Source of the DNA: Anolis carolinensis
Taxonomy: Eukaryota
Assembly (NCBI RefSeq): GCF_035594765.1
Contig: NC_085842.1
Coordinates: forward strand, 64,766,782 to 64,830,781
Direction: 5' to 3'
DNA length: 64,000 nt
Under the pieces are notes generated by a model. It did no database searches, was not told the origin of the DNA, and saw only the letters and a list, made by a program, of their open reading frames with translations. Position 1 is the first letter of the stretch; every line of letters begins with the position of its first letter. Below, piece by piece: positions 11,082-62,239 of this stretch. Position numbers and translations under genes: made by a program.

Positions 11082-11354
11082 GTTTATTTACACCATTAGT
11101 ACATTGTAAAGGCATTACAAAGATGCAGTATCGCTTCTTTTATTTGTTAAGGTATTGGAGAATGAAAATGTACTTTTTCTGTTTATTTTTGCATTCCAGA
11201 ATTTGTAAATGGAAAATTTACAGCCTATTTGGGATTCTGAAATCTCTGGCTGTGCCATTAATGCATATGTACTTTCTTTGGAAAGTAAATATTTTGATTT
11301 GTGTTGTCGAAGGCTTTCTTGGCCGGGATCACAGGGTTGTTGTATGTCTTTCGA

Positions 11355-12248
11355 TGTGATGTCTCATGGGCCATGTAGTCCCGTTCCTAGTACTATTGTG
11401 GCAGATGAAGAGGAAAACTTGGGTTTCCCACCGTTTCAGCCAGAATTGGAGCCCTTGCACCTGCAAGATGTTTGCCCACAAGAAGTCAGCCAAACAAGCC
11501 TTGAGCAGAAATCTCCCCCATTTTCTCGCCGGGATTATTATAATCGAGATAGAGGCGCTAGGGAGGCGAATCGCAGAAGCGCCAGGATTGCTGCCAGACA
11601 ATTAGCTGATTAAGCCTGTTTCCCTTGGGAAATCTTAAGGAGTCATGCATCTGGACACAGTATGGGTTTCGTTTCTTGTTCCCCAGGGAAAGTGTTCCTT
11701 GGCGGGAAAACAAGATCCTATATAGGTGTTTACCCGCAAAGAAATCCTTGCGGAGTCAATTCGTCACCTTGTGGAGTGAGATCGTGTGTGGACTACGCTA
11801 CTCCAGTCCCTTGCCTCCTGGACCAAGTTCCAAGCCTTGTTTCACGGACCTTGTTCTTGCACCAAGCTTTCCTTGTTTCCACGGACCTCGCCACGGACCT
11901 TGTTCTTGTTTCTTGCCTCTTGTTGTCACGTATCAAGCTTTGTTTGCCAAGAATCTAGTTTGCTTCCAGCCTTGTTGTCAAGTTCCATTGGACTAAAGGA
12001 CCCTGTCATTTCTCCACACTTTGCTTGGCAAAGTGTGTGTTTCGGTTATTGGATTATAACTTTGGACTCTAATATCACATATTGGACATTGTTTTCCTGG
12101 ACTATATTTAACCTTTCCTAAAAGGTCTACTTCTGAACTATATTCTTCACTTGTTTTTATTGACTTTATATATTCCTTTAATAAAGATATTAGATAGATT
12201 CTGGTCTCTGCGCATGGTTATTAGTGCTCTGCAGCCTGGGTCCTGACA
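11355..12248 (+). mobile_element. Solo LTR (894 bp) of an LTR retrotransposon (Gypsy/BEL-type)
   Basis: TGTGA...TGACA termini; 5-bp TSD TTCGA; TATA-like CCTATATAGG ~11717; AATAAA 12180; internal short tandem repeats 11820-11940; homologous to 22895-26123. Confidence 0.92.
11359..11613 (+). CDS. LTR-embedded ORF (84 aa; acidic N-half, Arg-rich RRSARIAAR C-terminus), possibly the pol/IN tail or an accessory protein
   Basis: Frame, indel phase and stop position are conserved with the diverged LTR at 22899-23158, with many synonymous differences. Confidence 0.6.
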   Translation: MSHGPCSPVPSTIVADEEENLGFPPFQPELEPLHLQDVCPQEVSQTSLEQKSPPFSRRDYYNRDRGAREANRRSARIAARQLAD

Positions 12249-15217
12249 TTCGAGCTGTGTGGCCATGCTCCAGAAGTATTCTCTCCTAACGTTTTGCCCA
12301 CATCTATGGCAGGCATCCTCAGAGATTGTGAGGTATGGATAAACTAAGTAAGGAAAGGAAAGAATATATATCTGTGTAGAGTCCAGGGTGTGGCAAGAGT
12401 CCTTTGTCACTGGGAAGCCAGCATTAATGTTCCAGTTAATCACCCTAATTAGCATTGGAAAGATTTTGTCTCTTGCCTGGGGGCATCCTTTGTTCAGTCA
12501 TTAGCTGCCCTCTACCCTCAGAGTGTTGGTTCCCATCTACTGTTTTGATTTTAGAGTTTTTAAATACTGGTAGCCAGATTTTGTTCATTTTCATGGTTTC
12601 TTCCTTTCTGTTGAAGTTGTCCACATGCTTGTGGATTTCAATGGCTTCTCTGTGTAGTCTGACATGATAGTTGTTGGAATGGTCCAGCATTTCTGTGTTC
12701 TCAAATAATGTGTCCAGGCTGGTTAATCAAGTGCTCTGCTATGGCTGATTTCTCTGGTTGAATTAGTCTGCATTTCCTTTCATGTTCTTTGACTCTTGTT
12801 TGGGCGCTGCGTTTGGTGGTCCACTAATGCTGGCTTCCCAGTGACAAAGGACTCTTGCCACACCCTGGACTCTACACAGATATATATTCTTTCCTTTCCT
12901 TACTTAGTTTATCCATCCTCACAACCTGTGAGGATGCCTGCCATAGATGTGGGCGAAACGTCAGGAGAGAATACTTCTGGAACATGGCCACACAGCCCGA
13001 AAGACATACAACAACCCAATATTTTGATTTATTCTTTGGGGGGAAAATGTGTGTGCTAATTTTAAAAGTACATAATCTAAGAATTATTCTTTTTTGGCCC
13101 AAATATTTATAAATGCACAAACCTTTGGATTGTCTTTCTTGTTCATTATATATCATATATAATATATAAAATCATATTTCTTTAATATTTTTAACATTTT
13201 GCAGTATCTCTGTATACTGTATATGCCTCAGTTTGGCCCAATTTTTATACTTTGCGTTGGTTGTAGGGTTTTTGTTTTACTTCAAACAACTGCCACAAAA
13301 AATAATACATATGTACCATGACTAATGGAGACAAAGTTATTTTAGCATTGTCTGTGTTTGTTTCTTTTTTCCATAACCCTTTTAAATTGGGCATGTTAAC
13401 ACATTTTAATAGCAAGATGATATTATAGTTTCAGAAAAGCTTATTCCCCCCCCCCCCCCATACAAAAGAAGTTAACACAAGAAAGCTACTCCACTCCCCC
13501 GTCTTCTCTGGTAAAACACTTGGTAATACTACTTTCCATTTCTTACATTATTTTAAATACATTTCCCCTGGCCTCTGTGTGTGGTTGTGGTGATGATGGT
13601 AGTTGTGTGCGTTATTGTTTTGTTTTTTAACTACAGGGTTATGAACTAATTGTGACCTCTACTCTTCATTCTTAATTGCTTCTGACCTACTCTGTTAAGT
13701 AAAAAAGAAATAACCTAACAGAAGGGTAATCGGATCGCTGCTGCCACACCAAGGAAACAGGCGAGCTTTGGGATGCTCTTTAATCTCTCTATCCACACAG
13801 CTCTCATTTTAATTTGCAAAATTGAACCCAGATCGAGAGCAGTAAAGCCTGAATACGGTAAATATTCATGCCTCAGTGATCTAGAGTAGCTCCATTACAT
13901 TTCAGAGATTGGGAGAATTACCTTTTGGATTATGTATATTCATGGGCTGATTTTTATTTGAGATATAATATTGCTCACATTGGGCTACATGTCACACATT
14001 CTACCAAAACCAGTCGCCTGACAAAGCTCCAAATGTTGCTTACACATAAAAAGTTTTACTTCTCTAGCATATAGTTTCCCTGCTTTTATGCTTTTTCAAA
14101 GATGAGTAATAAACAAAAATATCCTGTTAAACGAGGGGGAGGGAGATCCCTCCCTGTGGACGTTCTTCTATAAACCCTTCAGCCCTCTGTTAGCTACGAT
14201 GCAGTGTTTTGTGGCACACTTTGAAGTCTTTGGATGAAAGTGCTGCTATTGTTCTAAAACAAAGTCTACAGTTAAAACAGAAAAAAAATTCTTTGATTTC
14301 ATTGGAAGAATGAATTTCCCAGAATTTAACTTTTATTACCTGGCCTTCCCCTTGTGTATTGGTTGTGGGAATTGAGCAGAAGAAGAAAAAATGTAGCTTG
14401 AAAGCAGTTTTGATAACTTGAGGTTTAATTGGTATTAAAACTTAAGTTTATTTAGAATACATATGTTAAGGAAGAACAGGCTGAAATCCCCTTATTCTGC
14501 ATCTATCTGGGGAAAAAATGTTATGGTGAACCAAAGTGTATACAATGATTTAGGTATGGCTGTACTTGGCTCATCAGATACTTCAGGTTGTTCAGTCAGA
14601 AAATTCTAAGAAAAAAAAAATATTTAAATTGTATTTATATTGTTACCCATCAGAAAGCTTTTTGCTTTAACTAAACATTAAATTAATATTTTTGCCATTT
14701 ACAATGGTTTACCTCCCTGGTAGCGTTTGTGGACCTATCTTAATCGTCTAGTGGTATTATTTGGTATGCTTATGGGGCTTCAGGTTTCCACAGTGGGTCT
14801 GCTCTTTGGGGCACAATAAATTAAAATTATTACTTAATTTTGTTTACCTTTTTGAAAGGGATTCAGTCCTTACCAATTTTATTAAAGTCCTGCTTCCCTT
14901 GTGTTTTTGTTTGGTTTTATTGTTTTATCAATTAAAGATGTATCGATTAGTGTAGATTGTTACAGTGTTTCATCAGATTTTGTTATGGGAAGCATGTGAG
15001 TGTTTTCTAATTATTTCTTGAAGACATCTCAAGTCCTTTCATTGGTATATGGGAGAAATTCTATTTTGCTAGACCAAATGTAGGAAATATCAAGTTGATA
15101 ACTTATGATCTAGATCTAGAACAAGGGTTCTCAAACTTTTTCAGCCAACCCTCTTATGCTGTGCAGGAAAAACACAATCTAAGCACCCCCAACAGATGAT
15201 CATCCAAGTCTTTGAAA

Positions 15218-20750: not shown

Positions 20751-22898
20751 TAAGTCTTATTCCAGCGTTGCAAATAAGATTAACTTATATACAGCAGCAG
20801 TAGGGGGTAGGCTAAGCCCATTGCCCTCCCATTATTGTTCCCTTTATTTGGGGGAGTGGTCACCTGAAGATAACAGTATCCTACAGAACAATTTTTAAAA
20901 TGCTGATGTGAAAATAAAAGCACAAAGATATTTAAGATGATTACATTATTTTTGATAGTTGATTTGATGCAGTGGTTAATCTAGTGTATGGACTGGATTC
21001 GACATTCTTTGGTAGCCTTAGGCTCACTTTTGGGTTTTAATCTTTCAGTCCAACTCCCTCATATAATTTTGAAAGGATAAACTGTAGAGTGGTGAAATTT
21101 ATTCATTCCAACTTAAGTTGACCATAAATTTATTTGAGAATTTTGAATAGAGACGCAACAAAATTTAGAAAAAATGTACGCATACCTGTTCAAAGTGTGT
21201 TGCTAGCCTTTTGTTTTGTTTTTGTTTTGTTTTTTAATAAAATTTTATTAATTTTCTTAAAATACATCACTACCTCAGTACATTACATATTCTTCTATTC
21301 CATACATAATTCATTGCATCAACAATATATGTACATGTATCTTGTATGTTGTTTTATTCACCTCTATGCCCACCCCCCTCCGAGCCATTTCAATTTGCAT
21401 TCTCTTTCCAAAATACCATTTCTTCTTGTGGAGGTAATTTCCTATCTACTTCTTTTAAACCATTCTCAATAAATTTTCCCCAAACCTCATCAAAGTCATT
21501 TTTCTTCCATACCCCTTTCTTAATTCTTAACCTACAAGTCAACTTATCGTTTATTGCTAATTTCCATAGTTCTTTGTACCATTCTTCTATTTGTATATTT
21601 ATTTTACCTTTCCAGTTCCTTGCTATCAACAACCTTGCTGCTGTTAGCATGTTATTTATTGCATCCTTCTCTGTTTATTTCAATTTCTTAACATTATATA
21701 ATGACAACAATGCAATACTTGCGCTTTTTCCTATCTTCATATCCATTATAGTTTCTATTTCTCTAAATACTTTCCCCCAAAATATGTTTACATATTTACA
21801 TTGCCACCACATATGTATGTATGTGCCCACTTCCTGGCAACCTCTCCAACAATTTTTGTGGCGTTCTTATTGATGTTTGCTATCTTTACTGGTGTTAAAT
21901 ACCATTTCCAAACCAATTTATAATAATTTTCTTTAACACGTATCGATAAATTCGTGAAATGTCTTTGATCCCATAACTGTATCCAATCCACTTCCCCTAT
22001 CTTAGTCCCTAGATCTTCTTCCCATATCTCTCTTAATATTGCATCCTTTATTTCCCCCCCCCCTTAATTTAAATTATTATCTTGTATATTTTGCTAGTTA
22101 TTCCTTTCATTTTGTGGCCTTCTCCCATTGCTCTTTCCTTTTGTGTCATTTGTTCAAATTGTGTAAGTTGCCTCCTTCCCCATTACTTTTTTTCCAATTC
22201 TTGAACCATTGCTCTAACTGTAAGCAATGGAACCACGAGAGTTTAGTATCTCTAAATTCTTTCAGTATAGTTTCTTTCTTCATATCCACCTTTATCCAAT
22301 CTCCAATTTTGTCTATATTCTTTTCTCTTAGTTTTTCATCCAAAATATTCTTTAGGTTTTTTGGGAATTTCCTATCCATTATTATTGGTGTTAATGTTGA
22401 ACTTTCTGACAATAATATTTTCTTATATCTATTCCAAATTTCTAGCACATTTCTCAACATTGGGTTTTTTACTTCCTTAATTTCTTTCCTTTTTAAATCT
22501 TTGAAAAATATATTCCAAATTTTTTCCTCTGCTTCTTCCGAATCTTCCTCCAACCATTCCAAATCCTCCTTATTTATCATCCCTTCTATAACTAATTTCA
22601 TCCTATTTGCTTCATAATATTTTTTAATATTGGGGAGTGCTAGACCTCCTGCCTTCTGTGATTTATACCACAGTTGTTTATTTAACCTATTTTTCTTATT
22701 ACCATTGCAATATTTATTAATCATTTGTTGCCATTTACTTAATTCCTCTTCTGAAATTTGTAGTGGTACCATTCTAAATATAAAATTTATCCTTGGAAGA
22801 ATTTTCATTTTGACTAACGCTATCCTTCCGAACCATGATAACTTAATATTTTCATATTCTAGTAATTTCTTTTGAATTGCTTTCCTTAAAGTTGTGTG

Positions 22899-23158
22899 AT
22901 GCCTCATGGGCCTTGTAGTCCCGCTCTAGTGTCACTGTGGCTGACGAAGATGAAAACATGGGGTTTTCTCCGGATCAACAACAGCCGGAATCCTTCCAGA
23001 TGCCTGATGTTGATGTTCTTGCCCAAGAGCCCATTAAAACAGACCTTGAGCAGCTCTCACCTCCCTTCGCTAGGAGACAGTCCTTTGCTGCAGACAGGGG
23101 AGTGAAAGAGCGGGTTCGCAGGAGTTTGAGAATTGCAGCCAAACAAGACACTGATTAG
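22899..23158 (+). pseudogene. Second copy of the LTR-embedded ORF, with a 1-nt frameshift near 22925
   Basis: MPHGPCSPA / VADEDENMGF...SPPFARR..DRG..RRSLRIAAKQDTD* aligns to 11359-11613. Confidence 0.6.
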
Positions 23159-23297
23159 CCATGTTTCCCCTGGGAAAATCCAGGGAGTCTCACATCTGGA
23201 AAGTTGGGTTTCGTTTCCTGTTCTCTAGGGAAAGAGAACGCTGGACACCTGTTTGGCGGGAAAACGAGACCCAGTCAAAGGTGCCTGGCACGGTTGA

Positions 23298-25674
23298 TTC
23301 CTCCCGAACAGAAGAATAAGCGACAATATCAGAATTATCCTAAATTTAATCGAATATTACGACAAAACAAAAGAGAAAGAAGTACTTTTTCTATCGCTAG
23401 ACATAGAAAGGGCGTTTGATAACGTCAATTGGTTCTTCCTTAAAGCACTTTTAAAGAGCTTGGATATAGGAGAAACAATATATAGTACGCAGGAAGCAAA
23501 AATATTAATAAACGGAATTGAATCAAAGAAGATTAGTATACAAAAAGGAACCAGGCAAGGATGCCCTATTTCACCCCTTCTATTCATTATAGTCCTGGAA
23601 ATACTTCTCAACATTATAAGGGATGACGAAAACCTAAAGGGCGCAGAAATACGAGGATATAAATATAAATGCAGGGCGTTCGCTGACGACATGATATGCA
23701 TCATCGAGGACCCAATAAATAAGACAAGGAACTGGATAAAAAGAATTGAAGAATACGGGGAAATGACCGGTCTAAAAATAAACCTGGAGAAAACACAAGC
23801 CATGTCAAAAAACATCTCAGTAGATAGGAAAAGAAGACTAGAGGAAACAACAGGAGTAAAAATAACATCAAAGATCAAATACCTAGGCATTCATATTTCA
23901 ACCAACAATAACAATCTAATTAAAAACAACTTTGAGAACAAATGGAAAGAAATTAAGAAAGAGCTAAACAGTTGGAACAACCTGAGACTCTCACTACTAG
24001 GGAGAATTGCAGCAATCAAAACATATGTTCTCCCAAAGATGCTCTTTCTATTTCAAAGCTTGCCAATAATCCAAAATCAGAAAGTGTTCTCCGAATGGCA
24101 AAAGTATATTTCAAAGTTTTATGGCAAAAGAAAAAACCAAGGATCAAAATGAAAAACCTTTCAGATGACAGAGAGAGAGGAGGAATGAATCTCCCGGACC
24201 TTCGGCTGTATTACGAAGCATGTGCCCTAACATGGGTCAAAGAATGTCTATCCCTAAAGGATAAGAAAACATTAAATCTGGAAGGCTTTAACCTAAATTC
24301 GGGCTGGCATCTATACCTATGGGACACACCAGACAAAAATGAAAAGAAAATCTTTAGAAATAACGCTATAAGAGACCCATTAAATAAGATTTGGGAGAAA
24401 TACAAGAAAAGAATGTTCCCAAAAACACCAATGTGGCTATCGCCTTTAGAACTAATCCAGAAGAACCACCAAAGAAGTTCAAATGGCCCAATCTACAAAG
24501 ACATTTTGATAAGAAACGATAGGGAATACATCCTAAAACCACGGGAAGAAATACTCAAATCATTTAAGCATTTAACATGGCTAAATTTTAGACAACTAAA
24601 GGCACAATATAATAAGGATAAAAAAGAAGGCTTTATGGCGAAAAACTCAGAATGGGAAAAAATACTAGAGTCAGAAAACAAGTTAATTACAAAAATCTAC
24701 AAAAAATTACTGGAATGGAGCACCGAACCAGAACTTGTCAAGAGTTGTATGACCCAATGGGCCAGAGATATTGGGAGACCCATAAATTTCGAGGAATGGG
24801 AAAAGATTTGGAAGAAAAATATCAAACTTACCTACGCCACTGACCTAAAAGAAAACCAATATAAAATGGTATATAGATGGTATATTACTCCGAAAAAACT
24901 AGGTCTCATAAATAAAGATATAAACACAAAGTGTTGGAAGTGCCAAGACCACGAGGGAAATTTTTACCATATGTGGTGGTCTTGCACTAAAACAAAGAGG
25001 TACTGGATTGGAATACATAAAGAATGCGAGAAAATAATGAAAATGAAACTTAAAATGAGTCCAGAACTATATCTCCTTGGTCTAACAAACAGGAAGTTAA
25101 ATAAAAACGAGGAAAAGATACTAAACTATCTGGTTATAGGAGCAAGAATTGTTTTTGCCAAAATATGGAGATCATCCCAGATACCAACCACAGATCAATG
25201 GACAACGAAGATACAGGAGATAAAGAACATGGATAGGCTAACATTTTTGATGAGAAACCACCAAGGCAAACCAATAAAAGAAACAGACTGGTCTAATCTG
25301 GAAGATTACCTAAAAACAAGAAAAGATACAAGCATAGGTAGCGAAAATAAGAGCTAGAAAACTCGAAGAAGATCAAAACTAAAAATATAATAGCTAAGAA
25401 GGAGAAAACCCCCAGATTAGAAACTGCAATCATCCCTCCCCCCCCAAAAAACCCTGAAATTACTCCCCCCCTCAAAAATCAAGAATTGTGGGAAGAAACT
25501 TTATGACATCTCTACCAACAAAGAAACTTATCTCACAAACCCTCCTCATGCCTCTGTCCCCTCCTGCACTTTTTTTTGTTTCTGTCTTTGTTTCTTCCCC
25601 CCCTTTTTTCTCCTTTTTTCTTTTTTTTATTATTTATGTATTAAAAATCTTCAATAAAAATGATTAAAAAAAAA
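23298..25674 (+). mobile_element. 5'-truncated L1 (RT to CCHC, 3' UTR, poly-A) inside the LTR
   Basis: FLPNR start; QGCPISP, FADD, CWKC..HMWWSC; frameshifts (e.g. ~24120); AATAAA and A-tail at 25653-25674. Confidence 0.93.
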
Positions 25675-26975
25675 CAACAGAGCAGCTTCAGGAGTGAAAT
25701 CGTGTTCCAGCCTTGTGTGGACTTCGCAAAGTCCGCAAATCCAGTTTCCTTGCCTTGCTTATTCAAGTATTCAAGAATTGCCTTGCCTTGTTCATAGTCA
25801 CGGACCTTGTTCCTAGAATCAAGTTTTGTTTCCAGCCTTGTTGTGGATTTTACCTTGGACCTTTGAAAGACCCTGGACAATTCCCCACACTATTGCTTGG
25901 CAATAGTGTGTGTTTCGGTTTATTGGATTTTATTTTTGGACTCTAATATCATTTATTGGACAAACTATTTCTGGACTATATTTGACATCATTTGAAAGGT
26001 CTGCTTCTGGACTATACTTTCTGCTTGTTTTTATCATTCTTATATATTTCCTTAATAAAGATATTAGATAGTTTATTGGCCTCCGTGTATGGTTCTTGGT
26101 GCTCCGCTGCCTTGAGCGTGACAAGTTGTAACGTTTACCTCTTCCATTTCATGTAGATCCTTGGTTATAGTTACTCCTAAGTATTTTATTTTGTTCTTAA
26201 TCTTTATTTTCATTTTAGCTTGTTTCATAAAGTCGTCTTCTTCCTTTTTTGTATAGTTAAGTAACATCATTTCTGATTTATTCCAATTGATTTGTAAACC
26301 TGTTATTTTACCAAATATCTCTAAATGTAATTTTATTCTGTCCATATTGGCACACATATTCTTAATTGTCAATAGCGTATCGTCTGCGAATAAATTAATT
26401 TTTTGTTTTGTTGTTGTTCCAACCCCTTCTAATTTCTCATCTTTTCTTATTACATTTGCAAGTAATTCTATTGCTATGGCAAACAGTATTGGCGACAAAG
26501 GGCAGCCTTGTCTTGTTCCCCTCGTTACCTTTATTTCTCTTGTCACTCCATCGTTTATGGTTACTATCGCTGTATTGTTTGAATAAAATTGTTCTATCAA
26601 TCCTTTCATTTTATTCCCTATTCCGAATTTATTCATAATTGTTTTTAATGTTCTCCATTCCACACAATCAAATGCCTTGAATATGTCCAGAGCTAATATC
26701 CCTACTTTTGTTTTTTCATATTGAGATACCTAAACTTTATTTATTACTCTCCCTATTAAATTTGGCATTTCCCTCCCTTTCACGAAACCACACTGATCAG
26801 TCTTTGTATATTTATACATACAATTATTCATTCTTTTCGCCATTATAGCTGATAATATTTTTGAATCTTGATTTATTAGAACAGGCCTTTGTTTGGTATA
26901 ATTCTTTATAGAATTCTTCAAAAACCTCTATTTTTTCTTTCACTTTTTCTTTTGAACCTCAAATTTTATGTCTGA

Positions 26976-31113: not shown

Positions 31114-31755
31114 GTAACAAAGAAAGTCAAGTCCATGCAGATGTTTCATACTCCAGTCACCTATGCCATGCAGGGTGACAGAGTAGGAATTTGTGTAACC
31201 CAGTTTGATCCAAAGCTGTTGGAACGTGGCTTGATCTGTACTCCTGAATCTCTCCAGACAATTCATGCTGCTATAATCTCTTTAAAGAAAATTCCATATT
31301 TCCGAGGCACCCTTCAGACGAAGGCTAAGTTTCATATAACACTGGGCTATGAAACTGTTATGGGAAAAGTGATGTTCTTTAGCCCTGCTCCTGATGACTT
31401 CAATAACGAACCTATGGAGAACAGTTTGGATTTTGGCAAGGAATATCTTTATCAAGAAGAATATCTTTGGAGAGACCCAAAGTCTTCAGAAGAAAACAAG
31501 GAGAATGACCAAACTGGAGAAAGACAGATCCCTAAACAACAGTGGGCTTTACTTGAGTTTGAAAAACCAGTCACTTGTCCTAAATTGTGCCTTGTGATTG
31601 GCTCAAAGCTGGATACTGATATTCATGCAAACACCTGTAGGTTAGCATTTCATGGTGTACTCCTACAAGGAATAGAAGACAAAAATTATGCAGAGACATT
31701 TCTTCCAAAGCTCAAAGTTTACAAGCTGAAACATAAAGAAGGACAAGTGGAACGG
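31114..31755 (+). CDS. EEFSEC: EEFSEC internal coding exon (equivalent to human exon 5; domains 2-3), 642 nt, phase 0/0
   Basis: Polypyrimidine tract and TAG acceptor at 31111-31113; CGG|GTAAGT donor. Translation VTKKVKSMQMFHTPV..GDRVGICVTQFDPKLLERG..CRLAFHG..KLKHKEGQVER matches vertebrate eEFSec as I recall it. Confidence 0.97.
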
Positions 31756-34700
31756 GTAAGTTTGTATAATCCAAACCGAGTGTACCCTAAAGCAATTAGA
31801 ACATTTGTCAAAAATATCTTCAGGTGAAAGAAAACATAATAGCAAGGTGATTTTAAACAGAAAATAGCTGTTTTTTTGGCCAGTCTTGTAGTAACAGGGG
31901 AAATTGGACTATGTTGACAGAGTCAAAAGATCAAGACCCTGACTCCTTACTCTATGAAAAAGGGGTTCTTCCATTTGAGAGGGGGGAACTGTGGTCCAAT
32001 GCTAGTTTCCTACTGAAGTAAAGGGGTGCAATCCCTCTCTTTGTTTTGAGGAAACTACTTCTCTAAAACAGCATGGGGCATAGGGGAATTCAAGAAGGTT
32101 GCCATTTGGCTTTCTTGTCATCGGATGCAGAACTACGATTAGCATAAGTCTGGATCCAGTCCAAAGTCTTGGTTTGAAGACTGGGGGCATTTCAAACAGG
32201 GCTGGAAATCATTTTGGAAAATCCTGGTGTTTTGGATAACTCGGGACAGCAGAGAAGATACCACTTGTTCTGTTTCTATCTTCCTTACTCTGGAGCATTT
32301 CCTTAATGTATTTTTTTTTTGTATTTAGAGGTGTCATGCAGACATAGAGGTACAGCTTTCCTGGCTCAAAGTTGTAATGATGTTACATTGTTTTATTACC
32401 CTTTTTTGCTTGTATTTGATTTGAGACTTGCTTATCTTGGAATGACTTTTGGAGAAAGTTGCAGTGAAATGTTTGGTTTCAATGCAGGAAAGTATGAACA
32501 AATGAGTGATGAAATCACTGAGTGCTTTAAGAAAAGACCACAGTCTTATTTAATAGAAATACTGATTCAAATGGTCCCACCCTATTGCCGATGGATGTCT
32601 GGAGATTAGAATAACTGAATTTACAGTGTCTATTCTTGGCATTACTAGAGGAAAAGTGCATTCTCTTTGTCAAGAAAGGAAGTGGGTGTCTCCCCTCCCC
32701 TCCTCACTGCAATAGGGAAGCACTAAATAATAATGGAAATGTATGTTTTACATTAATGGGGAAATAAAATCTGCCTTAAAAATACTCCAAGGGCCAAACT
32801 GGATTTGTAACTTCTGAGCCAACTGAGAATGAAGGAGGGGCTGGGGCTGTAGCTTGCCAGTTTCATGGAAGTCTCTTCCTAAAAATCACAATATTTATAG
32901 TGCTCAGAGATTAGTTTTGGTTTACCATGTTCCTCATTCTTCAAGCTAGAATTAATATCATTCTGTCCACTGATTTAGAAGCTAGTTTTATCTTGCAAAA
33001 ATTATATTATTTTAATTACGTGAGTAATACTCTATTAGCACTGGTCACTCAGTGTCCCTGGTTCTGCTCTACCTTGTAAACAAGTAAAGAGAATCCACTA
33101 CAGATCATTCTGGCACTCAGCAAATAATTGCTCATCTGTTTTCATCAGTCAGAATAATGGCTTTAGTAGGTTGGATTAGATGGTCGTAAAGATTTATAAC
33201 CAAGTCTTTACTTCTAGTGCCACCAGTCACGTCCTCCAGCTGTCATGCTTCAACGGACCACCTACTTCTCACAAAGCTGTAGATGTTATCAAATGTTTCT
33301 AGTTTGTCTCTATCTAGAGAATTCAGGGTAGTTGGAATACTCAAAAAGAACGCTTTCTATCTTCTGAAAGCAGACCAGCATAGCTCTTACAATCACAGGG
33401 AAGAGACACTGTTTCTCTCATTAGATATGGTGTAACACAGTGACTAAGAGTGGGTCATTTCACTTGCAGTTTCCATCACTCCAGGTATGTGCACGTACAT
33501 ACACACATATACACCTCCTGGTAGCCCAGTGCTGTGGAACTGCACAGTGGAAGAGAAAACTGTACCATTTTTGTGTGCATATCCCTCTATGTCTTGGTGT
33601 ATGAAGAGGTCACTGTGATCTGTGTTTTCCTCAACCACAAACTACGTGGCCTCAAGAAAGCCATTCTCTTTCATTCTCCCTACCCCTGGAGCATTTGTAC
33701 AGTGGGAATAATAGTAATGCAGTTTATCTACCCTTTGTTTAATCAATTTATGCACTCTTTATGACTTCATAGTTACTGAAAGATTGTCTGTGAAAAACTC
33801 TTACCTGATAGAAAGATTCATTATTTTACCTAACATTTCAGTTCGTTTAAAAATATGAAATCTCTAGTGCTGTCCAAAAGTTGAAAAGTATTAGTGGGCA
33901 TGTAATCATATGAGTAAACTCCATTGCATCTAGTTTGTCATAAGTATTTATGTGGCCATCTGCAATGAGTTCAAAAAGTGAAAGGTGAAGCATAGATTCA
34001 TATGCTGACATTTTGCATACCTTTGTTTTGCAAATGTTTGCGCAAGCAAGGTTAGATCCTGAAATATTACTGCTTTACTCACGGTGTGGGATACTTGTCA
34101 ATGAGTAACCCTGATGGAATAGAAAGAGAAGGGGAAATAAAGCCCTTCACTGTATTTGCAAAGCATAGCCTGCCCTGCCTGTTGTTGTTTTGGACTTGTT
34201 TGGTGAAAATAAAACACATATTTCAGGGAGAATTGTTATTTGCTGAAACTATATACAGAAGTCCTTTGGCATGGGCAGAAATACTAGAAGGTCATTGACT
34301 AAACAAGGCTTCAATGTATTGTAAAGAGTGCATAAATTGTGCATAAAGTCATAAAGAGTGCATAAATTGATGAAACAAGGCTTCATTTGAATGTATTTAT
34401 GTAAGGTAGAGTACTGCATTTGTTTGCAGCAATAATTGCATACACTGCTAGGTTTCTGGATTTTCTTGTTGAAAAACCTACCTAGTGACCAATGTTTGAA
34501 GATCATAATGTGTGAAATGTGCTGACACATCTTATTTTGTGTTTATACAATGAAATAGAAATTACAGCTTTATGCAAGTCTTCCTTAATACCTCCTTTTT
34601 GATATATCACTGTGACTTTAAAAAGTCTGTGGGCATCACAAAAATCTTTGTAGGGCTTCTTATAGCCAGTCTACTTCCTTGCCAATGCCCAAGGGATACA

Positions 34701-35182
34701 GAATTGGCAAATTAGATCTTCCCTAGTTTCCCCATTTAAATCCTGTTGTATAAATCTGATGTTGCATGATGTCAGCGTTTGGCAGCAAACTGAACTGCCT
34801 AGCAAAACCTGTTTTTACCACCATTAATGTTTCAGCTGCTTTGAAGTCTGAACATGGGTTTGCTTGGCTGTGCTTGGCTGCTGATGGCATGCTAAATGTG
34901 ATAATAACACAGCAATGAGGGCACTCAGTGAATAAAAATGCACAATGCTTTTCCAGGTTAAATCCACAATAAAATAGAAGCATAAGGGATGTATTTATTT
35001 TTTGGCTGCTGTTCTGTTTGCGATTGAGCAATTTTGTGAAGCTTAGGAATGTGGAGATAATAGCATTCTCATTTGAAATACCATTTGCTTTTCAAAGTGC
35101 AGAAGATGGAGGGACAAAAATAAGAACTTTGGGTTGTTGTATGTCTTTCGGGCTGTGTGGCCATGTTCCAGAAGCATTCTCT

Positions 35183-35223
35183 CCTGACGTTTCGCCCACA
35201 TCTATGGCAGGCATCCTCAGAGG
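35183..35223 (-). ncRNA. Hammerhead ribozyme motif (antisense copy)
   Basis: Exact reverse complement of 35867-35907. Confidence 0.72.
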
Positions 35224-35866
35224 TTGTGAGGTATGGAGAAAACTAAGCAAAGAGGTTAATATATATCTGTGGAAAGTCTAGGGTGAGAGAGGTCAGTGTG
35301 AATGTGTAGTTAATCACTTAAATTAGCATTGAAAAGCTTATCTGCTGTCTTCTTCCTGCCTCTGGGGCATCCTTTGTTTAGAGTCGTTAACTGCCCTTGG
35401 TTGATTCATGTCTGGAAACCCTCTGTTTTCAGAGTATTGCTTTTTATTTACTGTTCTGATTTTTGAGTTTTGTAATACTGGTAGCCAGATTTTGTTCATT
35501 TTCATGGTTTCTTCCTTTCTGTTGAAGTTGTCCACATGCTTGTGGATTTCAATGGCTTCTCTGTGTAGGAGAAAGGAAGAAACCATGAAAATGAACAAAA
35601 TCTGGCTACCAGTATTACAAAACTCAAAAATCAGAACAGTAAATAAAAAGCAATACTCTGAAAACAGAGGGTTTCCAGACATGAATCAACCAAGGGCAGT
35701 TAACGACTCTAAACAAAGGATGCCCCAGAGGCAGGAAGAAGACAGCAGATAAGCTTTTCAATGCTAATTTAAGTGATTAACTACACATTCACACTGACCT
35801 CTCTCACCCTAGACTTTCCACAGATATATATTAACCTCTTTGCTTAGTTTTCTCCATACCTCACAA

Positions 35867-35907
35867 CCTCTGAGGATGCCTGCCATAGATGTGGGCGAAA
35901 CGTCAGG
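35867..35907 (+). ncRNA. Minimal type I hammerhead ribozyme motif in the Penelope pLTR
   Basis: cct-CTGAGGA-[stem II TGCCTGC..GTGGGC]-GAAACGTC-agg. Penelope-like elements are known to carry such motifs. Confidence 0.75.
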
Positions 35908-36850
35908 AGAGAATGCTTCTGGAACATGGCCACACAGCCCGAAAGACATACAACAACCCTGTGATCCCGGCCATGAAAGCCTTCGACAACACAATAAGAA
36001 CTTTAATGGCACAAGGTGAAAGATATGGTAATGCATAGAATATGAGTCATTGTACAACATTTGTTAATTGGTTACACAATTTTCCTGTGAAGGCAATTCC
36101 AAGGAAATAATTAATATTTTATTTTGAATGTAACAATAACATTACTTTGCTTTGGACAAGCATTAATTTGACAGTGCTTGCTAACAGAAATTGTAACTCA
36201 CCATTGCTCTTGTTGCTATTAGATAGATACACTAACATGTTTTGGCTTGTACAAGTGTTTGGACAACTGTCATTTATTTCTTTGGACTTGCATAAGAGTA
36301 ATTTACAAAGAACCTGGTTGCAATGAGAATATGATGATTTGCATGAGATCAAAAATCAGTTTGCATTCTGTTGTTTGTTAGAGACTACAGTCAAGAATAT
36401 ATATATCATTACATACTACCTTGTATTTTGATGAAGAAAAGAGAATGAGTTTGTGTTGAATTATTCATGGGCAAGAATGAAAATTTGGTTTTCCTAGCAA
36501 TTCAAACTACTTTGTGAAATGTCATATCTAAAATTATCCAAATTTTGCGAATTTCAATTGAATGCACATATTTTTGTGCTCAGACTGAAGGGCAATTACA
36601 TTCTAGTCCAGAAAGTGCCCTCCAAATCAAGTTAAACAGATTTCCCCCTATGTCTCCTCTATTTTAGCACTCTGTTTAGAAGTGTGCTGGTACTATTGCT
36701 TCTTGTCAGAAATCAGCAAACCTCAGCGCCATTTAACACTAGATTTTCTCTCTAATACTTTCTACTAGTTGCTACTGTAATTATTTGTTGTAAGCCTCAG
36801 CACTATACAGTGGTATATACCTTATCCATCATGCCGTTTAACTTCTAAAT

Positions 36851-40856: not shown

Positions 40857-41957
40857 ATGGCAACATTTAAATTTAAATCAGACAGAGAAATAAAAGACTC
40901 AAGAGGTGCAATTAGAAGACCATCCCTGAATGAGGAAATGAACCTGAAGGATATGATGAAAGACATGATGAGAGAGATTCAGAAAATTCAGGAGAAGCAA
41001 GACGTATACCAGAAAATTCAACAGGAACAAATGTCGGATTTTAAAAAGGAGATTAAAGAAGAATTGGGGATAATGAAGAGCGAGATTACAACATTACAAC
41101 AGGAAATAAAGGATCTGAAAAATGAAAAGAAAGAACTAAAGATAACTCAAGAAAAGACCCAATATAAACTAAAAGAACTAGAGGAAAAAAATGAAAAAAT
41201 AAACGCAAAACAAGAAGCCATGGAGGCAAGAGAATTGGAACATCAATTAAGAATGAGAAATATACCGGAAGAGCCAGGAGAAAACATAAGAGAGAAAGTA
41301 ATAGAGATACTAATGAAACTCCTGGACTGCTCCGAACAGGAGATACAAGTACAAATGGACAGAACGTACAGGATTAACACAAATTTCTCAAGAAGAAACA
41401 AAACCCCGAGAGACGTGATAGTACACCTTACAAAGAAAATTGCAAGAGATGAAATATTGAGAATAAATAACAAAAAACAGATATTCTACAAAGAGACAAA
41501 AATAGCGATATTGAAGGAAGTACCAAATACAATAATAAATAGAAGGAAAAAATATACCTTCCTGACAGAGGAATTGAAGCAACAGAGGGCGAGATACAGG
41601 TGGGAAAGAGAAGAAGGATTAATGACAACGTATAAAGGTCAAAGGTATTGGATCACAACAGAAGAAAGAGCCCGAGAATTTTACAACACAATAAGAAAGG
41701 AGAAGGATGAAGAGTCTGAAAGGAAACAAAAAGAGAAGAAAAAACCAAAGAGACAACGTATAGAGTCACCCGAAAAAGATGATTTGGACATAAAAGAATG
41801 CAGACTGAACCTAAGGGAAAACATGGAATCTACGAATCTAGGAAAAGTGGAAGAAAGACAGGTGGAAGAGGAACAAGAGGATAGAATGAGAGAAGAAGAG
41901 GAGGAAGAGGAAGAGACAGAAGCAGTGGGTGATAAGGACGAAGATAAATATGAGTGA
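40857..41957 (+). CDS. L1 ORF1p (coiled coil, RRM, CTD), 366 aa, intact
   Basis: Heptad-rich N-terminus; LRMRNIPEE and DRTYRI..PRDVIV RRM-like motifs; upstream of ORF2. Confidence 0.9.
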   Translation: MATFKFKSDREIKDSRGAIRRPSLNEEMNLKDMMKDMMREIQKIQEKQDVYQKIQQEQMSDFKKEIKEELGIMKSEITTLQQEIKDLKNEKKELKITQEKTQYKLKELEEKNEKINAKQEAMEARELEHQLRMRNIPEEPGENIREKVIEILMKLLDCSEQEIQVQMDRTYRINTNFSRRNKTPRDVIVHLTKKIARDEILRINNKKQIFYKETKIAILKEVPNTIINRRKKYTFLTEELKQQRARYRWEREEGLMTTYKGQRYWITTEERAREFYNTIRKEKDEESERKQKEKKKPKRQRIESPEKDDLDIKECRLNLRENMESTNLGKVEERQVEEEQEDRMREEEEEEEETEAVGDKDEDKYE

Positions 41958-44900
41958 ACTTAAAATTTATTCAAACAATATTAACGGACTAAATTCGGCA
42001 ACAAAAAGGAATAAAGTATTTAATGAGCTAAAGAAAAAAAGATACCAGATTATTGCTCTCCAAGAAACCCACATAAACCAAAAACACGTTAAATATCTGG
42101 AGGAAAAAAAACTGGGACAATGCTTTTATGCCTCGGCATTAGAAAAAAAAGGAGGTAGTGATGTATGTAGAAAGGAGAATACCAGCTAAATTAGCTTTTA
42201 AGGATGAGGAGGGTAGATTCATAGGAGTAAAAATAACGATGCAGGGAATAGATATATTAATATGTAACATATATGCACCTAATGGAGCAAAGTCAGCATT
42301 CACAGAAAAACTAAAAGGCAGTATTAATGATCAAGAATATGAACATTTAGTATTAATAGGAGACTTCAACGGTGTAGTAGAGGGGGAAATAGATAGAAGT
42401 AAAGTAGCGAAGAAAGGGAAAAGTAAAAATAATATAGGAAATTTACCAAAAACAATGATGAACATGATGAAGGAATTAAACATTCAGGATAGCTGGAGAA
42501 TAAAAAATGAAGGAGTAAGGGATTTTATTTTTTTCTCGACCAGACACCAAAGCTGGTCGAGAATCGATATGGCGTGGGTGTCAAAGTCCTTAATGCCAAA
42601 AATAAGAAAAACAGTGATATTGCCAAGGTTAGATTCAGACCATTGCCCATTAGAATTAGAGATATTCTACAATAAAAAAGAATGGAAGTGGAGGTTAGAT
42701 GAAAATCTATTGAAGAAAGAGGAAGATATTGAAAGAATAAGGAAAGTAATACAAGAATATTTCGAGATAAATGACACAACAGAGATAGACCTATTTACAT
42801 TGTGGGAAGCAAGCAAAGTAGTAGTAAGAGGGAGATTTATTCAACAAAAAGCAATTAAAAAGAAGGAAAGATTTAAAAAAATGAACAAGATAATTGAAGA
42901 AATAAAAAAGGAAGAAATTAGGTTAAAATCAAACCCAAGAAACAAGGATACCCAGAGGAACATAGAAATCTTACAAAAACAAAGGGAATATTTGATAATG
43001 GAGGAAAGGGCTAATAAACTGAAATTTATAAAGCAAGATTTCTTTCAAAACGCAAATAAACCGGGAAGATGGATGTCTAATAGAATTAAGGAAAGAAAGG
43101 AAAGTAAATATGTAACAAAAATAAAAGAAGGGGACAAAATATATACAAAGGAGGAAGACATAAAAACCCAATTCCAAAAGTTTTACGAAACACTCTACCA
43201 AAAAGAACAAATAGACGAGGAGAAAATAATGAAATACATAGAAGAGAGAAAAGTGACAAAAATCTCAGAAAAACAAAGAGAGGAACTAAATAGTGAAATT
43301 ACAGAGCAGGAGATAAAGAAGGCCATACAAAATTTGAAACCTAATAAGGCCCCAGGCCCAGATGGGCTAACAGCAGTATATTATAAAACCTTCGGCCAAG
43401 AGCTAATACCATACTTGAAAAAAATTATGAATAGGATTAGAGAAATTGCAAAAATGCCGGAAACATGGAAACAAGCAAACATATGTACAATACATAAAGA
43501 AAATTCGGACCCAGAAAAAATTAAAAATTACAGGCCAATTTCACTATTAAATTTGGATTACAAAATTTTTAGCAATATAATAGCGGAAAGATGTAAAAAC
43601 TTTTTAAAAAACTGGATAAAAGAAGAACAAACGGGGTTTTTGCCCAATAGACACCAAAGAGAAAATGTAAGAACCATTATTGACTTGATTGAATATTATG
43701 AAATAAAAAATCAAAAAAAAGTTCTTTTACTGGCCCTCGACGCTGAGAAAGCTTTCGACAATGTAAATTGGTCCTTTTTCAAATTATTAATAAGGGAAAT
43801 GGATATAGGTTATTATTTCCAAAATACAGTTGATGCAATATACACCTCACAAAAGGCAAAAATTCTAATTAACGACCGAGAAACGAAAGATATAAATATA
43901 GAGAAAGGAACTAGGCAAGGCTGCCCCTTATCACCATTAATATTCATTTTGACACTGGAGATACTATTAAACAGAATAAGGGAGGAAGAAGAACTGAAAG
44001 GAGCAAAAATACAGAATTATGAATACAAAATCAGAGCCTTCGCGGATGATATTATATGTGTAATAGAAGACCCTGACACAAAATTAGGAAAATGGCTAGA
44101 GATAATAAGAGAATTCGGAGCAGTAGCAGGATTTAAAATAAATTTGGAAAAAACGAAAGCAATTACCAAAAATATAACAAAGAAGGAACAAGAAACTTTA
44201 ATGAAAAAATGGAATATCCAAATCGCCCCCAAAATAAAATATCTAGGAATAATTATAACCCAGAAAAACTCTCAGCTACTTGAAAATAACTACCTAACAA
44301 AGTGGAAAGAGATGAAGAAGGAAATGGAGATTTGGGGGAAGTTAAAACTGTCACTGTTAGGTAGAATAGCATGTGTAAAAATGAGTATTTTACCAAAAAT
44401 GATATTCCTATTTCAGAATCTGCCGATAATTAGAAATCAAAAGACCCTTAAAGAGTGGAACAGGGACATAATGAAATTTATATGGCAAAAAAAGAAACCG
44501 AGAATAAAGCTGAAATATATGATCCAGGAAAAGAACAGGGGTGGATTAGCGACACCAGACTTAAAACTTTATTTCGAAGCATCGGCTCTAATGTGGGTAC
44601 GAGATTGGACAAAATTAGAAAATAATAAATTGCTAAATTTGGAAGGAATAAATTTAAGATTTGGATGGCACGCATACCTATGGTATGGGAAATCCAAAAT
44701 TGAGAAAGAATTTAATAATCACTTTATACGCTCAGCAATTCTTAAAATTTGGGAAAAATACAAAAAGAAATTATATGACAAAACGCCTTTATGGGTCTCT
44801 CCCCTAGAAGCATCGCAGAGAAGACTACTGGGATGGCACAACTGGCCAAATTATAAAGAATTATTAGTAAAACAGAATGGAGAATGGGAAATAAGACCCC

Positions 44901-45697
44901 AACAGGAATTGAGAGAAATAAATAAAAAGATTTCCTGGTATCAGATATGGCAGGTAAAAGAACATTTTAAGACAGACAAACAAGTAGGATTTGAGGAGCA
45001 AAATACATTTTGGGGAAAAATAACACAAACAGACAGAAAAATAATAACAAAAATCTATAAAAAATTAGTAGAATGGGAAACAGAAAAAGAGGAGGAAAAA
45101 TCACATATGACCAGATGGAATGAAAATATAGGCAGGAAGATTAGGAAAGAAGAATGGGAAGGAATCTGGAGGGAGAAACTGAAATATAGCTATGCAACAG
45201 ATCTAAAGGAGAATTGGATTAAGATGGCTTATAGATGGCACATGACACCACAAAAATTAGGAAAATGTTATAAAAACTTTAAAAAAAATTGTTGGAAGTG
45301 TGAGAAGATTGAGGGTACATACTACCATATGTGGTGGGGATGTGAAAAAGCCAAGATATATTGGAAGAAAATTAGGGGAGACATAGAAAAGATATTAGAG
45401 ATAAAACTGCCAATGAAACCGGAAATATGGTTACTAGGAATAACGGAACAAAAACTAGAAAAAAATAAAGATAAATTATTATTTCTGCTAACGACGGCAG
45501 CAAGGATATGCTATGCGAGGATTTGGAAGAATCCTGAAATCCCTAAAGAAGAAGAATGGTTGAAAAAAATACAAGATATAAAAAATAAGGATAGGCTTAC
45601 TTTCCTTCTATCAAAAAGTAAGGGAAATCCGATAAAAGAAACAAATTGGGACAATGTAACAAAATACCTAGAAGGAAAGATAAAACAATCAAAATAA
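41950..45697 (+). CDS. L1 ORF2p (APE endonuclease, RT, CCHC) with one frameshift at ~42143-42155
   Basis: NINGL, LQETH | IYAPN, GDFN, SRID, SDH; KAPGPDG, QGCPLSP, FADD; CWKC..HMWWGC. ATG at 41950 overlaps the ORF1 stop. Confidence 0.93.
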
Positions 45698-46622: not shown

Positions 46623-47569
46623 GGGGTTGTTGTATGTTTTCCGGGCTGTATGGCCATGTTCTAGAAGTATTCTCTCCTGACGTTTCACCCACATCTATGG
46701 CAGGCATCCTCAGAGGTTGTGAGGTATGGAGAAACTAAGCAAGGCAGGTTTATATATATCTGTGGAAAGTCCAGGGTGAGGGAAGAACTCTTTGTCAGTT
46801 GGAGGCCAGTGTGAATGTTGTAGTTAATCGCCTTAATTAGCATTGAATAGCTTCATCTCCTGGCTTCTTCCTGCCTGGGCGTATCTTTTGTTCAAAGTCA
46901 TTAGCTGGCCCTGGTTCCCATGTCTGGAACTCCTCTGTTTTCAGAGTGTTGCTTCTTATTTACTGTTCTGAGTTTTTTTTAATACTGGTAGCCAGATTTT
47001 GTTCATTTTCATGGTTTCCTCCTTTCTGTTGAAGTTGTCCACATGCTTGTGAATTTCAATTGCTTCTCTGTGTAGTCTGGCATGATAGTTGTTGGAGTGG
47101 TCAAGCATTTCTGTGTTCTCAAATAATATACTGTGTCCAGGTTGGTTCATCAAGTGCTCTGCTATGGCTGATTTCTCTGGTTGAGTTAGTCTGCAGTGCC
47201 TTTCATTTGACTCGTGTTTGGGCAATGCTGCATTTGGTGGTCCCTATGTAGACTTGTCCACAGCTGCATGGTATCCGGTAAACTCCTGCAGAGGTGAGAG
47301 GATCCCTCTTGTCCTTCGCTGACCATAGGTGATTAACTACAACATTCACACTGGCCTCCAACTGAAAAAGAGTTCTTCTGTCACCCTGGACTTCCCACAG
47401 ATATATATAAATCTTCCTTGCTTAGTTTCTCCATACCTCACAACTTCTGAGGATGCCTGCCATAGATGTGGGCGAAACGTCAGGAGAGAATACTTCTAGA
47501 ACATGGCCATACAGCCCGGAAAACATACAACAACTCTGTGATCCCGGCCATGAAAGCCTTCAACTACAT
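46623..47569. mobile_element. Penelope/Poseidon insertion with inverted arms (minus 46623-~47322, plus ~47330-47569)
   Basis: 13-bp TSD GTTGTTAATGTTT; minus strand encodes the GIY-YIG motif GVYRIPCSCGQVYIGT at ~47240-47286 and KSAIAEH. Confidence 0.93.
47444..47484 (+). ncRNA. Hammerhead ribozyme motif (antisense twin at 46676-46716)
   Basis: CTGAGGA..GAAACGTC core is intact. Confidence 0.7.
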
Positions 47570-61252: not shown

Positions 61253-61490
61253 ATCCGTCCTGAGCCCAGTTCTGTACAACATCTTTATTAATGACTTAGA
61301 TGAAGGGTTAGAAGGCTTGATCATCAAGTTTGCAGGCAACAACAAATTGGGAGGGATAGCTAATACTCCAGAATGTAGGAGAAGAATTCAAAATGATCTT
61401 GACAGATTAGAGAGATGGGCCAAAACCAACAAAATGAAGTTCAACAGGGACAAATGTAAGATGCTCCACTTAGGCAGAAAAAATGAAGTG
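61253..61490 (+). mobile_element. CR1 RT fragment
   Basis: SVLSPVLYNIFINDLDEG..KFA..IQNDLDRLERWA..MKFNRDKCK. Confidence 0.85.
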
Positions 61491-61498
61491 TATTATTA

Positions 61499-61596
61499 GA
61501 GACTGGGTTGCCACTTTTTGGGGCTTTTATTGTGGTGTTCCTGCATGAAAGCAGGAGGGGGTTAGACTACATGACCGTTGGGAGTCTCTTCTGACA

Positions 61597-61648
<52 letters not shown>

Positions 61649-62215
61649 GGCTGGGTTGCCACTTTTTGGGGCATTTTTGTGGTTTTCCTGCATGGGAGCA
61701 GGGGGCGGGTTGGACTTCATGGCCTTTGGGGGTCTCTTCTTACATTATAATCATCATCATCATCGGCTGGGTTGCCACTTGTTGGGGCTTTTATTGTAGT
61801 TTTCCTGCATGGGAGCTGGAAGGGGTTGGACTACATGGCTTTTGGGGGTGTCCTACATCATCATCATCATCATCATCAGAGGCTGGGTTGCCACTTTTTG
61901 GGGCATTTTTGTGGCTTTCCTGCATGGGAGCAGGGGGGCGGGTTGGACTTCATGGCCTTTTGGGGGTCTCTTCTTATATCATCATCATCATCATCATCAT
62001 CGGCTGGGTTGCCACTTGTTGGGGCTTTTATTGTAGTTTTCCTGCATGGGAGCTGGAAGGGGTTGGACTACATGGCTTTTGGGGGTGTCCTACATCATCA
62101 TCATCATCATCAGAGGCTGGGTTGCCACTTTTTGGGGCTTTTATGGTGCTTTTCCTGCATGGGAGCAGGAGGAGGTTGGACTACATGGCCGTTTTGGGTC
62201 TCTTCCTACTCTATT
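61499..62215 (+). repeat. Tandem array of six ~95-bp CR1-3'-end-like units separated by (TAT)n/(CAT)n
   Basis: Units start ~61500, 61649, 61765, 61881, 62002, 62115; dimeric period ~235 bp. Confidence 0.9.
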
Positions 62216-62239
62216 ATTACCTCGACGGAGCATGCCTTC

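Follow-up and report, generated by a model that had tools for sequence, protein, structure and literature searches.

The open reading frame at the start of a solo LTR in the Anolis carolinensis genome is almost certainly the C-terminal tail of a Pol polyprotein, which in its source element is encoded in the 3' LTR. The tail is under purifying selection as a protein, and it ends in a motif close to the core of HMGN proteins. Judging from the sequence, we think it probable that this final motif tethers integrase to the acidic patch of the nucleosome. For the wider reading, that squamate chromoviruses of an iguanian and a lacertid lineage would have built an HMGN mimic into U3 and so carry a bivalent nucleosome reader on integrase, the grounds for and against are about balanced. 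The LTRs belong to a young, abundant chromovirus of the Tf1/Sushi type (Ty3/Gypsy), and two copies, LTR A and LTR B, lie in the window, the 64,000-nucleotide stretch of DNA analysed here (Table 1). New here is the HMGN-like end shared by two lizard lineages; the architecture is mostly known already, and family annotations outside the searched literature may already note the long pol. In that literature, with Repbase and supplements outside its scope, no description was found of an HMGN-like motif in a retrotransposon or of the lizard tail, and among the papers listed for RRSAR and retrotransposons none is on such an element, by title.

An earlier note, made from the letters of the window, had described a conserved frame in two solo LTRs, and what it had counted was reproduced. 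Both LTRs are solo, each flanked by a 5-bp TSD. Between A and B, 38 of 71 aligned residues are identical, 20 of them with different codons, exactly as counted before; the sole indel in the aligned span is two codons, and the stops differ as stated. The 1-nt lesion seen in the second copy is a private one-base deletion near 22925, recognised against the sibling copy L034. The 87-codon frame is kept in 27 of the 29 other best-matching B copies, one being frameshifted and one without a stop. The note overlooked the HMGN-like end motif and the LINE inside LTR B. Around this LINE fragment no TSD was seen within LTR B, and ∼8 LTR bases, the self-priming sequence included, are missing at the insertion point. 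The tail ORF of LTR A is orphaned in the solo LTR and is joined to the chromodomain frame in full-length copies. A 134-aa ORF at 11209-11613 was rejected as a gene, being a chance join of flank and LTR frame.

Table 1. Positions of the LTR features in the window.
Feature	Position	Strand	Remarks
Left TSD of solo LTR A	11350..11354	+	5 bp, TTCGA; repeated at 12249-12253
Solo LTR A	11355..12248	+	894 bp, TG...CA; Tf1/Sushi-type chromovirus; same LTR bounds full-length L031/L032
LTR-encoded C-terminal Pol/integrase tail, LTR A	11356..11613	+	85 codons (11356-11610) and TAA
HMGN-like motif RRSARIAA, LTR A	11572..11595	+	Predicted acidic-patch arginine anchor
TTTCCCGCCAA	11699..11709	-	Putative site in U3, presumably E2F-like; occurs in both window LTRs
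TATA box, LTR A	11719..11724	+	
GCGGAGTCAA	11750..11759	+	Complement of the element's PBS; predicted transcript 5' end and self-primer; U3/R boundary
AATAAA polyadenylation signal, LTR A	12180..12185	+	
TSD of LTR B	22890-22894 and 26124-26128		AGTTG
Solo LTR B	22895..26123	+	Sister subfamily, LINE-interrupted; 865 bp in sibling L034
Tail ORF of LTR B	22896..23158	+	Broken by private one-base deletion; stop TAG
Motif variant RRSLRIAA, LTR B	23117..23140	+	
5'-truncated L1-like LINE within LTR B	about 23302..25673	+	2.37 kb; at predicted transcription start

The source element and its pol frame

A search of the anole genome with the LTR gave 2,211 candidates, and the 40 that were scored are 99-100% identical. 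Two LTR pairs lie 5.35-5.37 kb apart and represent full-length elements (L031, L032). In full-length copies, gag, which encodes a CCHC knuckle, and pol overlap in different frames; pol has the order PR-RT-RH-IN-SH3-chromodomain, and between pol and the LTR there is no further ORF and no env-sized frame. Pfam searches of L032 identified an Asp protease (weak, under the cut-off), RVT_1, RT_RNaseH, Integrase_H2C2, rve and SH3_Tf2-1, as well as a chromodomain at the integrase C-terminus (PF00385, E 1.9e-9, over the cut-off). By eye, the three cage aromatics of a type I chromodomain (F...W..F) are intact in the anole elements. The LTRs are direct and bounded by TG...CA, and the PPT is GGGGGATAG; the PPT-LTR junction pattern occurs 4,529 times in the genome, compared to 0 for a reversed control. 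The closest named proteins are UniRef entries from A. carolinensis, "Gypsy retrotransposon integrase-like protein 1", in which the tail is already included.

We sampled 42 elements: L031, L032 and 40 others taken from among the first junctions on contig 1, where some that lay close together were passed over. A 5' LTR was detectable in 39, of which 36 have a 5-bp TSD and 34 have pol open over at least 1,200 codons up to the tail stop. The tail region is identical in 31 of 38 comparable 5'/3' LTR pairs. The family is very young. The genome also harbours a second chromodomain family with long open frames (L102, L107-L109, L114, L115, L119-L129), whose pol ends ∼15-36 residues past the chromodomain and lacks the HMGN-like motif.

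At all 30 first junctions on contig 1, the chromodomain and the LTR ORF share one frame, and pol crosses the PPT, where GGGGGATAG followed by TGTGATG is read as G-D-S-V-M. The ATG of the ORF belongs to the LTR end TGTGATG. Among these tails, 28 end at the motif and stop, one has no stop and one has a deletion. Read-through in frame was also found in L031, L032, L018, L027, L038 and L057, the last two being members of subfamily B. The earlier note had considered either an accessory microprotein or a pol/integrase tail; with pol in frame with the GTG-ATG at the LTR start at every sampled junction the tail stands, and the microprotein loses ground because the TATA box lies downstream of the ORF. 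A programmed frameshift at the PPT, suggested by L062/L063, whose pol stops there, was rejected because L062/L063 has a shorter PPT region and other frameshifts, and the B siblings L038 and L057 are in frame.

The tail is 85, 87, 92 or 97 residues long. Its first 50 residues are acidic (net -8 to -11), and the surroundings of RRS[A/L/T]RI are basic (net +5 to +7). No Pfam family matched the tail at E <= 1. A tail profile run against 1.84 billion representatives, which include few reptile transposon proteins, gave 8 matches and no distant homolog; the 4 matches inspected are all anole-type tail fragments, and the other 4 are weak. AlphaFold2 modelling of chromodomain plus tail from 9 sequences gave a mean pLDDT of 54 and a pTM of 0.17, with the chromodomain itself not properly folded.

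Self-priming is a feature of the Tf1/Sushi group (PMC6317226, excerpt). The PBS of the anole element (GTTTGACTCCGC) has a 10-11-nt complement in the element's own LTR in 38 of 42 5' LTR/PBS pairs, a match that a shuffled LTR yields 0.2% of the time, counted per single LTR. In 33 of the 38 matching pairs the complement was reported ∼30 nt past the TATA box, and in 5 an equally long complement near LTR base 321 was reported first. In L063 (subfamily B), PBS and complement have changed together in a compensatory manner. In some subfamilies (L132, L145, L147, L148, L166) a second 10-nt PBS complement (GGAGTCAAAC) lies in U3 at about LTR base 321, ∼25 nt past the tail stop. The predicted start in LTR A is 31 nt past the start of the TATA box and 137 nt past the tail stop. 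The element is predicted to self-prime from the 5' end of its transcript, and the tail ORF is predicted to lie in U3, upstream of the TATA box and the self-priming start. With the ORF upstream of the promoter, a solo or 5' LTR would not transcribe it from its own promoter, and the genomic RNA is predicted to contain only the 3' LTR copy.

MMTV sag and HIV nef also lie in U3 and are separate proteins from spliced RNAs. The analogy with them drawn in the earlier note is limited to location and finds no further support: the anole ORF is continuous with pol and upstream of both the TATA box and the predicted start.

Selection on the tail and distribution of its motif

In ten subfamily representatives, Nei-Gojobori dN/dS of the tail is 0.31 in frame and 0.95 and 1.03 in the other forward frames; for LTR A against the B-subfamily copy L038 it is 0.26, compared to 0.97 and 1.07. 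The ML estimate of omega is 0.335 (log-likelihood -1666.30 vs -1699.67 at omega = 1; 2dlnL = 66.7). The purifying selection suspected from the two window copies is hence confirmed, at 0.26-0.34 in frame and about 1 in the other forward frames, and omega among the representatives is far from the value near 1 that had been named as speaking against it. The representatives derive from 38 junction loci, minus 7 with an upstream stop and 1 odd tail; the resulting 30 were collapsed to 9 at 95% identity, and one solo LTR was added. Reverse-strand frames of these representatives gave 1.09, 0.54 and 1.08, the intermediate value resulting from a frame that shares third positions with the coding frame.

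Constraint is uneven along the tail. dN/dS is 0.07 in the first nine codons, 0.34-0.51 in the middle, and 0.15 in the last 15 codons including the motif, where synonymous divergence is highest (pS 0.67). Within the distal tail, constraint is thus strongest at the motif; dN/dS is 0.05-0.07 in the integrase core, SH3 and chromodomain. In a frame-blind DNA alignment of 9 LTRs, gap events within the ORF are of 15, 30 and 36 nt, all multiples of 3, and 23 of the 52 gap events after the stop are of 1 nt. Singleton variants within subfamilies, for which neutrality was expected, are also biased towards synonymous changes (31 synonymous, 35 nonsynonymous, pN/pS 0.32). Few changes have arisen after insertion: 38 pairs of 5' and 3' LTRs show 7 differences over the tail (3 synonymous, 4 nonsynonymous), too few for a neutrality test, and many concurrent source elements would explain the singleton bias. 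Over its first 260-300 bp the LTR of this family does not diverge neutrally, a point of importance when copies are dated or annotated, and the LTRs are able to end spurious gene models. Gene models P0004, P0008 and P0009 (one a cation-transporting ATPase) end in the LTR tail, joined at VMTHGPCSP; they are probably mis-annotated and possibly reflect exonisation.

Filtering for length and for R at motif position 1 and I at position 6 kept 92 of 102 LTR starts and set aside 10 odd ones, so the invariance of these two residues is partly built in. The 92 tails carry RRSARIAA (58), RRSLRIAA (30), RRSARIIA (2), RRSTRIAA (1) and RWSARIAA (1), and 91 match RRSxR[LI] with arginines at positions 1, 2 and 5. 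Arginines 2 and 5 are encoded by both AGN and CGN codons, a mix which together with high pS and low dN/dS points to constraint at the level of protein and not of DNA. Upstream of the chromodomain the motif occurs 0 times in 113,778 residues of fetched proteins, a redundant set. The corresponding sequences given in excerpts of PMC13347269 and PMC12480509 are RRSARLSA for the HMGN core, RRSSRLTS for tardigrade Dsup and RRSARIAT for yeast Dot5. The anole motif RRSARIAA is identical to that of Dot5 at 7 of 8 positions. Nucleosome binding by Dot5 requires R6, R7 and R10 and the acidic patch (PMC13347269, excerpt).

In a quick tree of 27 Pol sequences, built without a named Tf1/Sushi reference element, the anole element groups with Pols of fungal, amphibian and fish chromoviruses, and its sister group is formed by elements of Podarcis muralis (SH-aLRT 99, ∼0.9 changes/site apart). 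Iguanians and lacertids separated well over 100 million years ago; horizontal transfer between the lizard lineages could also have occurred. Five Podarcis proteins (P0019, P0139, P0144, P0145, P0146) have acidic tails of 111-117 residues with RRSARLKA near the end, identical to the HMGN core at 7 of 8 positions. In an hhalign comparison of anole and Podarcis tails only 13 columns around the motif align, with a probability of 3.7%, so the whole tails are not demonstrably homologous. The motif arises in 3-7 of 10,000 tail shuffles. The Podarcis chromodomain cage reads Y...W..Y by eye, and the V-M pair is present at the junction in Podarcis too, the PPT/LTR boundary being read there from protein alone. 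A protein atlas search with the Podarcis C-terminus returned only chromodomain clusters, at 0.86 or lower.

Among 117 listed relatives, the 88 non-anole sequences with the chromodomain pattern were compared. RRSxR[LI] is present in 2 of them, one a probable chance match in a frog model, and among the sequences compared the long HMGN-like tail was found only in the two lizards. Given the rarity of the motif here and the second, tail-less anole family, chromoviruses as a whole can do without it. A basic RGRP patch, which we take to be AT-hook-like, lies past the chromodomain in 32 of the 88. In fourteen relatives (P0035, P0037, P0051, P0062, P0069 and 9 others; those with a name are fish), Pol finishes in a short tail of about 17-35 aa where measured, with a conserved [SL]P[ED][FY] end that follows a G-rich junction and, in most, the RGRP patch. 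The [SL]P[ED][FY] end is probably a second, shorter type of LTR-encoded Pol tail, and on the protein sequences alone, read-through of pol into the LTR seems to be common among chromoviruses of vertebrates.

Possible roles of the tail

The element resembles the Tf1/Sushi chromoviruses of fungi and vertebrates (Metaviridae) in gag, in a PR-RT-RH-IN-SH3-chromodomain pol, in the lack of an env-sized ORF, in its 5-bp TSD and in a self-priming PBS, predicted here from sequence. Its TGTGA...TGACA ends are close to the Sushi att motifs TGTYANR/CNTNACA (PMC3601003, excerpt). It differs in the long, acidic-then-basic LTR-encoded tail with its HMGN-like end. Endogenous retroviruses do not fit, as pol runs directly into the 3' LTR without env and the PBS matches the element's own LTR and not a tRNA. 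Plant CRM group A is known to have a pol that extends into the 3' LTR, the LTR there encoding the CR motif and beginning TGATG (PMC3059260, excerpt), and some beet Bingo chromoviruses with an upstream chromodomain show such an extension too (PMC3605345, excerpt). However, the CR motif replaces the chromodomain in CRM group A, whereas the anole element keeps a caged chromodomain upstream of the PPT and adds the tail after it. CRM group A elements are also centromeric and tRNA-Met primed, while the PBS of the anole element matches the own LTR. The first 100 anole junctions, taken by contig position alone, are spread over 0.5-31.5 Mb of contig 1.

Reverse transcription copies the 3' U3 into the 5' LTR, and LTR-LTR recombination leaves solo LTRs, as would be expected here from established biology; the window copies would then be silent relics, their codon signal reflecting replicating source elements. 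In the proposed mechanism, mature integrase would read chromatin twice. The chromodomain with its F-W-F cage would bind methyl-lysine, and three arginines of the tail, held on a flexible acidic linker, would contact H2A-H2B. Such a two-point contact could hold the intasome on chromatin or steer its choice of sites. The R-R-S-x-R-[IL]-x-x pattern, the three essential arginines and a probably disordered context are shared with HMGN, Dot5 and Dsup; in contrast to these, the anole motif is on the Pol of a mobile element, and it is a short putative binding motif without homology to an HMGN protein. Foamy virus Gag CBS, KSHV LANA and HCMV IE1 are acidic-patch tethers, and for foamy virus Gag arginine-anchor tethering shapes the choice of integration site (PMC9040877, excerpt); none of these tethers is part of an integrase, and their sequences differ from that of the anole tail. 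A complex prediction with the last 36 tail residues and anole H2A/H2B, in which the alignment was unused and whose method is unproven on peptides, gave a score of 0.01 and a mark of 0.34, which count neither for nor against the contact.

Several features of the motif leave room for other roles. It is short and arginine-rich, and could serve as an NLS or bind nucleic acid; position 4 is L in 30 of the 92 tails, subfamily B included, in contrast to A in HMGN and Dot5 and S in Dsup; and the middle of the tail is weakly constrained. That the same Pol tail ends in an NLS or a general DNA/RNA-binding patch, its HMGN likeness being incidental, would suit the positive charge around the motif and the RGRP patch that relatives carry instead, and basic NLS segments are known from the C-termini of retrotransposon integrases, e.g. 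Ty1. We regard this as doubtful. The exact R-R-S-x-R-[IL] spacing is the sole thing common to anole and Podarcis tails, lysine replaces none of the arginines, either in the 10 representatives or in the 92 tails, and the tail lacks K-K/R-x-K/R, the classical NLS consensus. It seems improbable that the element's protease releases the tail from integrase and that it then acts as a small tether, free or bound to the capsid, in the manner of MLV p12 or the CBS of foamy virus Gag. Its N-terminal MxHGPCSP, a possible recognition site, is strongly conserved among anole subfamilies (dN/dS 0.07), but Podarcis has not retained this stretch, which also overlaps the LTR terminus and is thereby subject to constraint on the DNA; the use of short acidic-patch tethers by retroviruses (PMC9040877, excerpt) is in its favour.

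An independent microprotein, initiated at the ATG at LTR bases 5-7 from a solo or 5' LTR or from spliced or read-through RNA, is highly improbable. The ATG is present in 10 of 10 representatives, Podarcis has the V-M pair, and the gene models P0004 and P0009 indicate that exon-like use is at least predicted automatically. Nevertheless, the ORF is upstream of the TATA box and the predicted start, all 30 sampled junctions have pol in frame, and the ATG is part of the LTR terminus; plant CRM LTRs also have TGATG (PMC3059260, excerpt). We give next to no credence to a tail without own function, in which selection would only keep the frame tolerable until the stop or act on DNA elements in U3. The middle region, with dN/dS up to 0.51, and a length varying from 85 to 97 residues would fit, but an early stop would be simpler and is fixed in no sampled subfamily, the gap events in the ORF preserve the frame, and synonymous first-position changes in arginine codons have left the motif intact. 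The omega of 0.335 largely refutes this reading.

Vertebrate chromoviruses are little studied. If the tail is an integrase-borne acidic-patch tether, it would be a vertebrate parallel to the CR motif, in a family with thousands of recent copies. Targeting is directly testable in this family, since the receptor of such a motif, the H2A-H2B acidic patch, is known, as are substitutions that abolish its function, and the young copies number in the thousands; the second, tail-less chromodomain family is a natural control.

Surroundings of the two copies

Both window LTRs are on the same strand. At 31135-31827 lies an exon of EEFSEC, the gene for the selenocysteine elongation factor (euk_SelB_III), and both LTRs are probably within EEFSEC introns or upstream. 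LTR B is inserted in ORF2 of an older minus-strand L1-like LINE, whose flanking pieces (22146-22907 and 26073-26636) match consecutive parts of the ORF2 at 42161-45697, giving a three-level nesting. The latter ORF2 of 1178 aa and a 366-aa ORF1 belong to an apparently full-length L1-like element at 40857-45697. LTR A is inserted in an inverted-repeat element, about 11300-11354 and 12249-13050, with a short minus-strand ORF at 12445-12690; this ORF had no Pfam match and presumably resembles a Penelope-like GIY-YIG end. Palindromic copies related to this host element are found at 35131-35959, with perfect arms of 390 nt, and at 46626-47534. At 61471-62225 there is a tandem array of units of about 115-148 nt, with ATT/ATC microsatellites between them.
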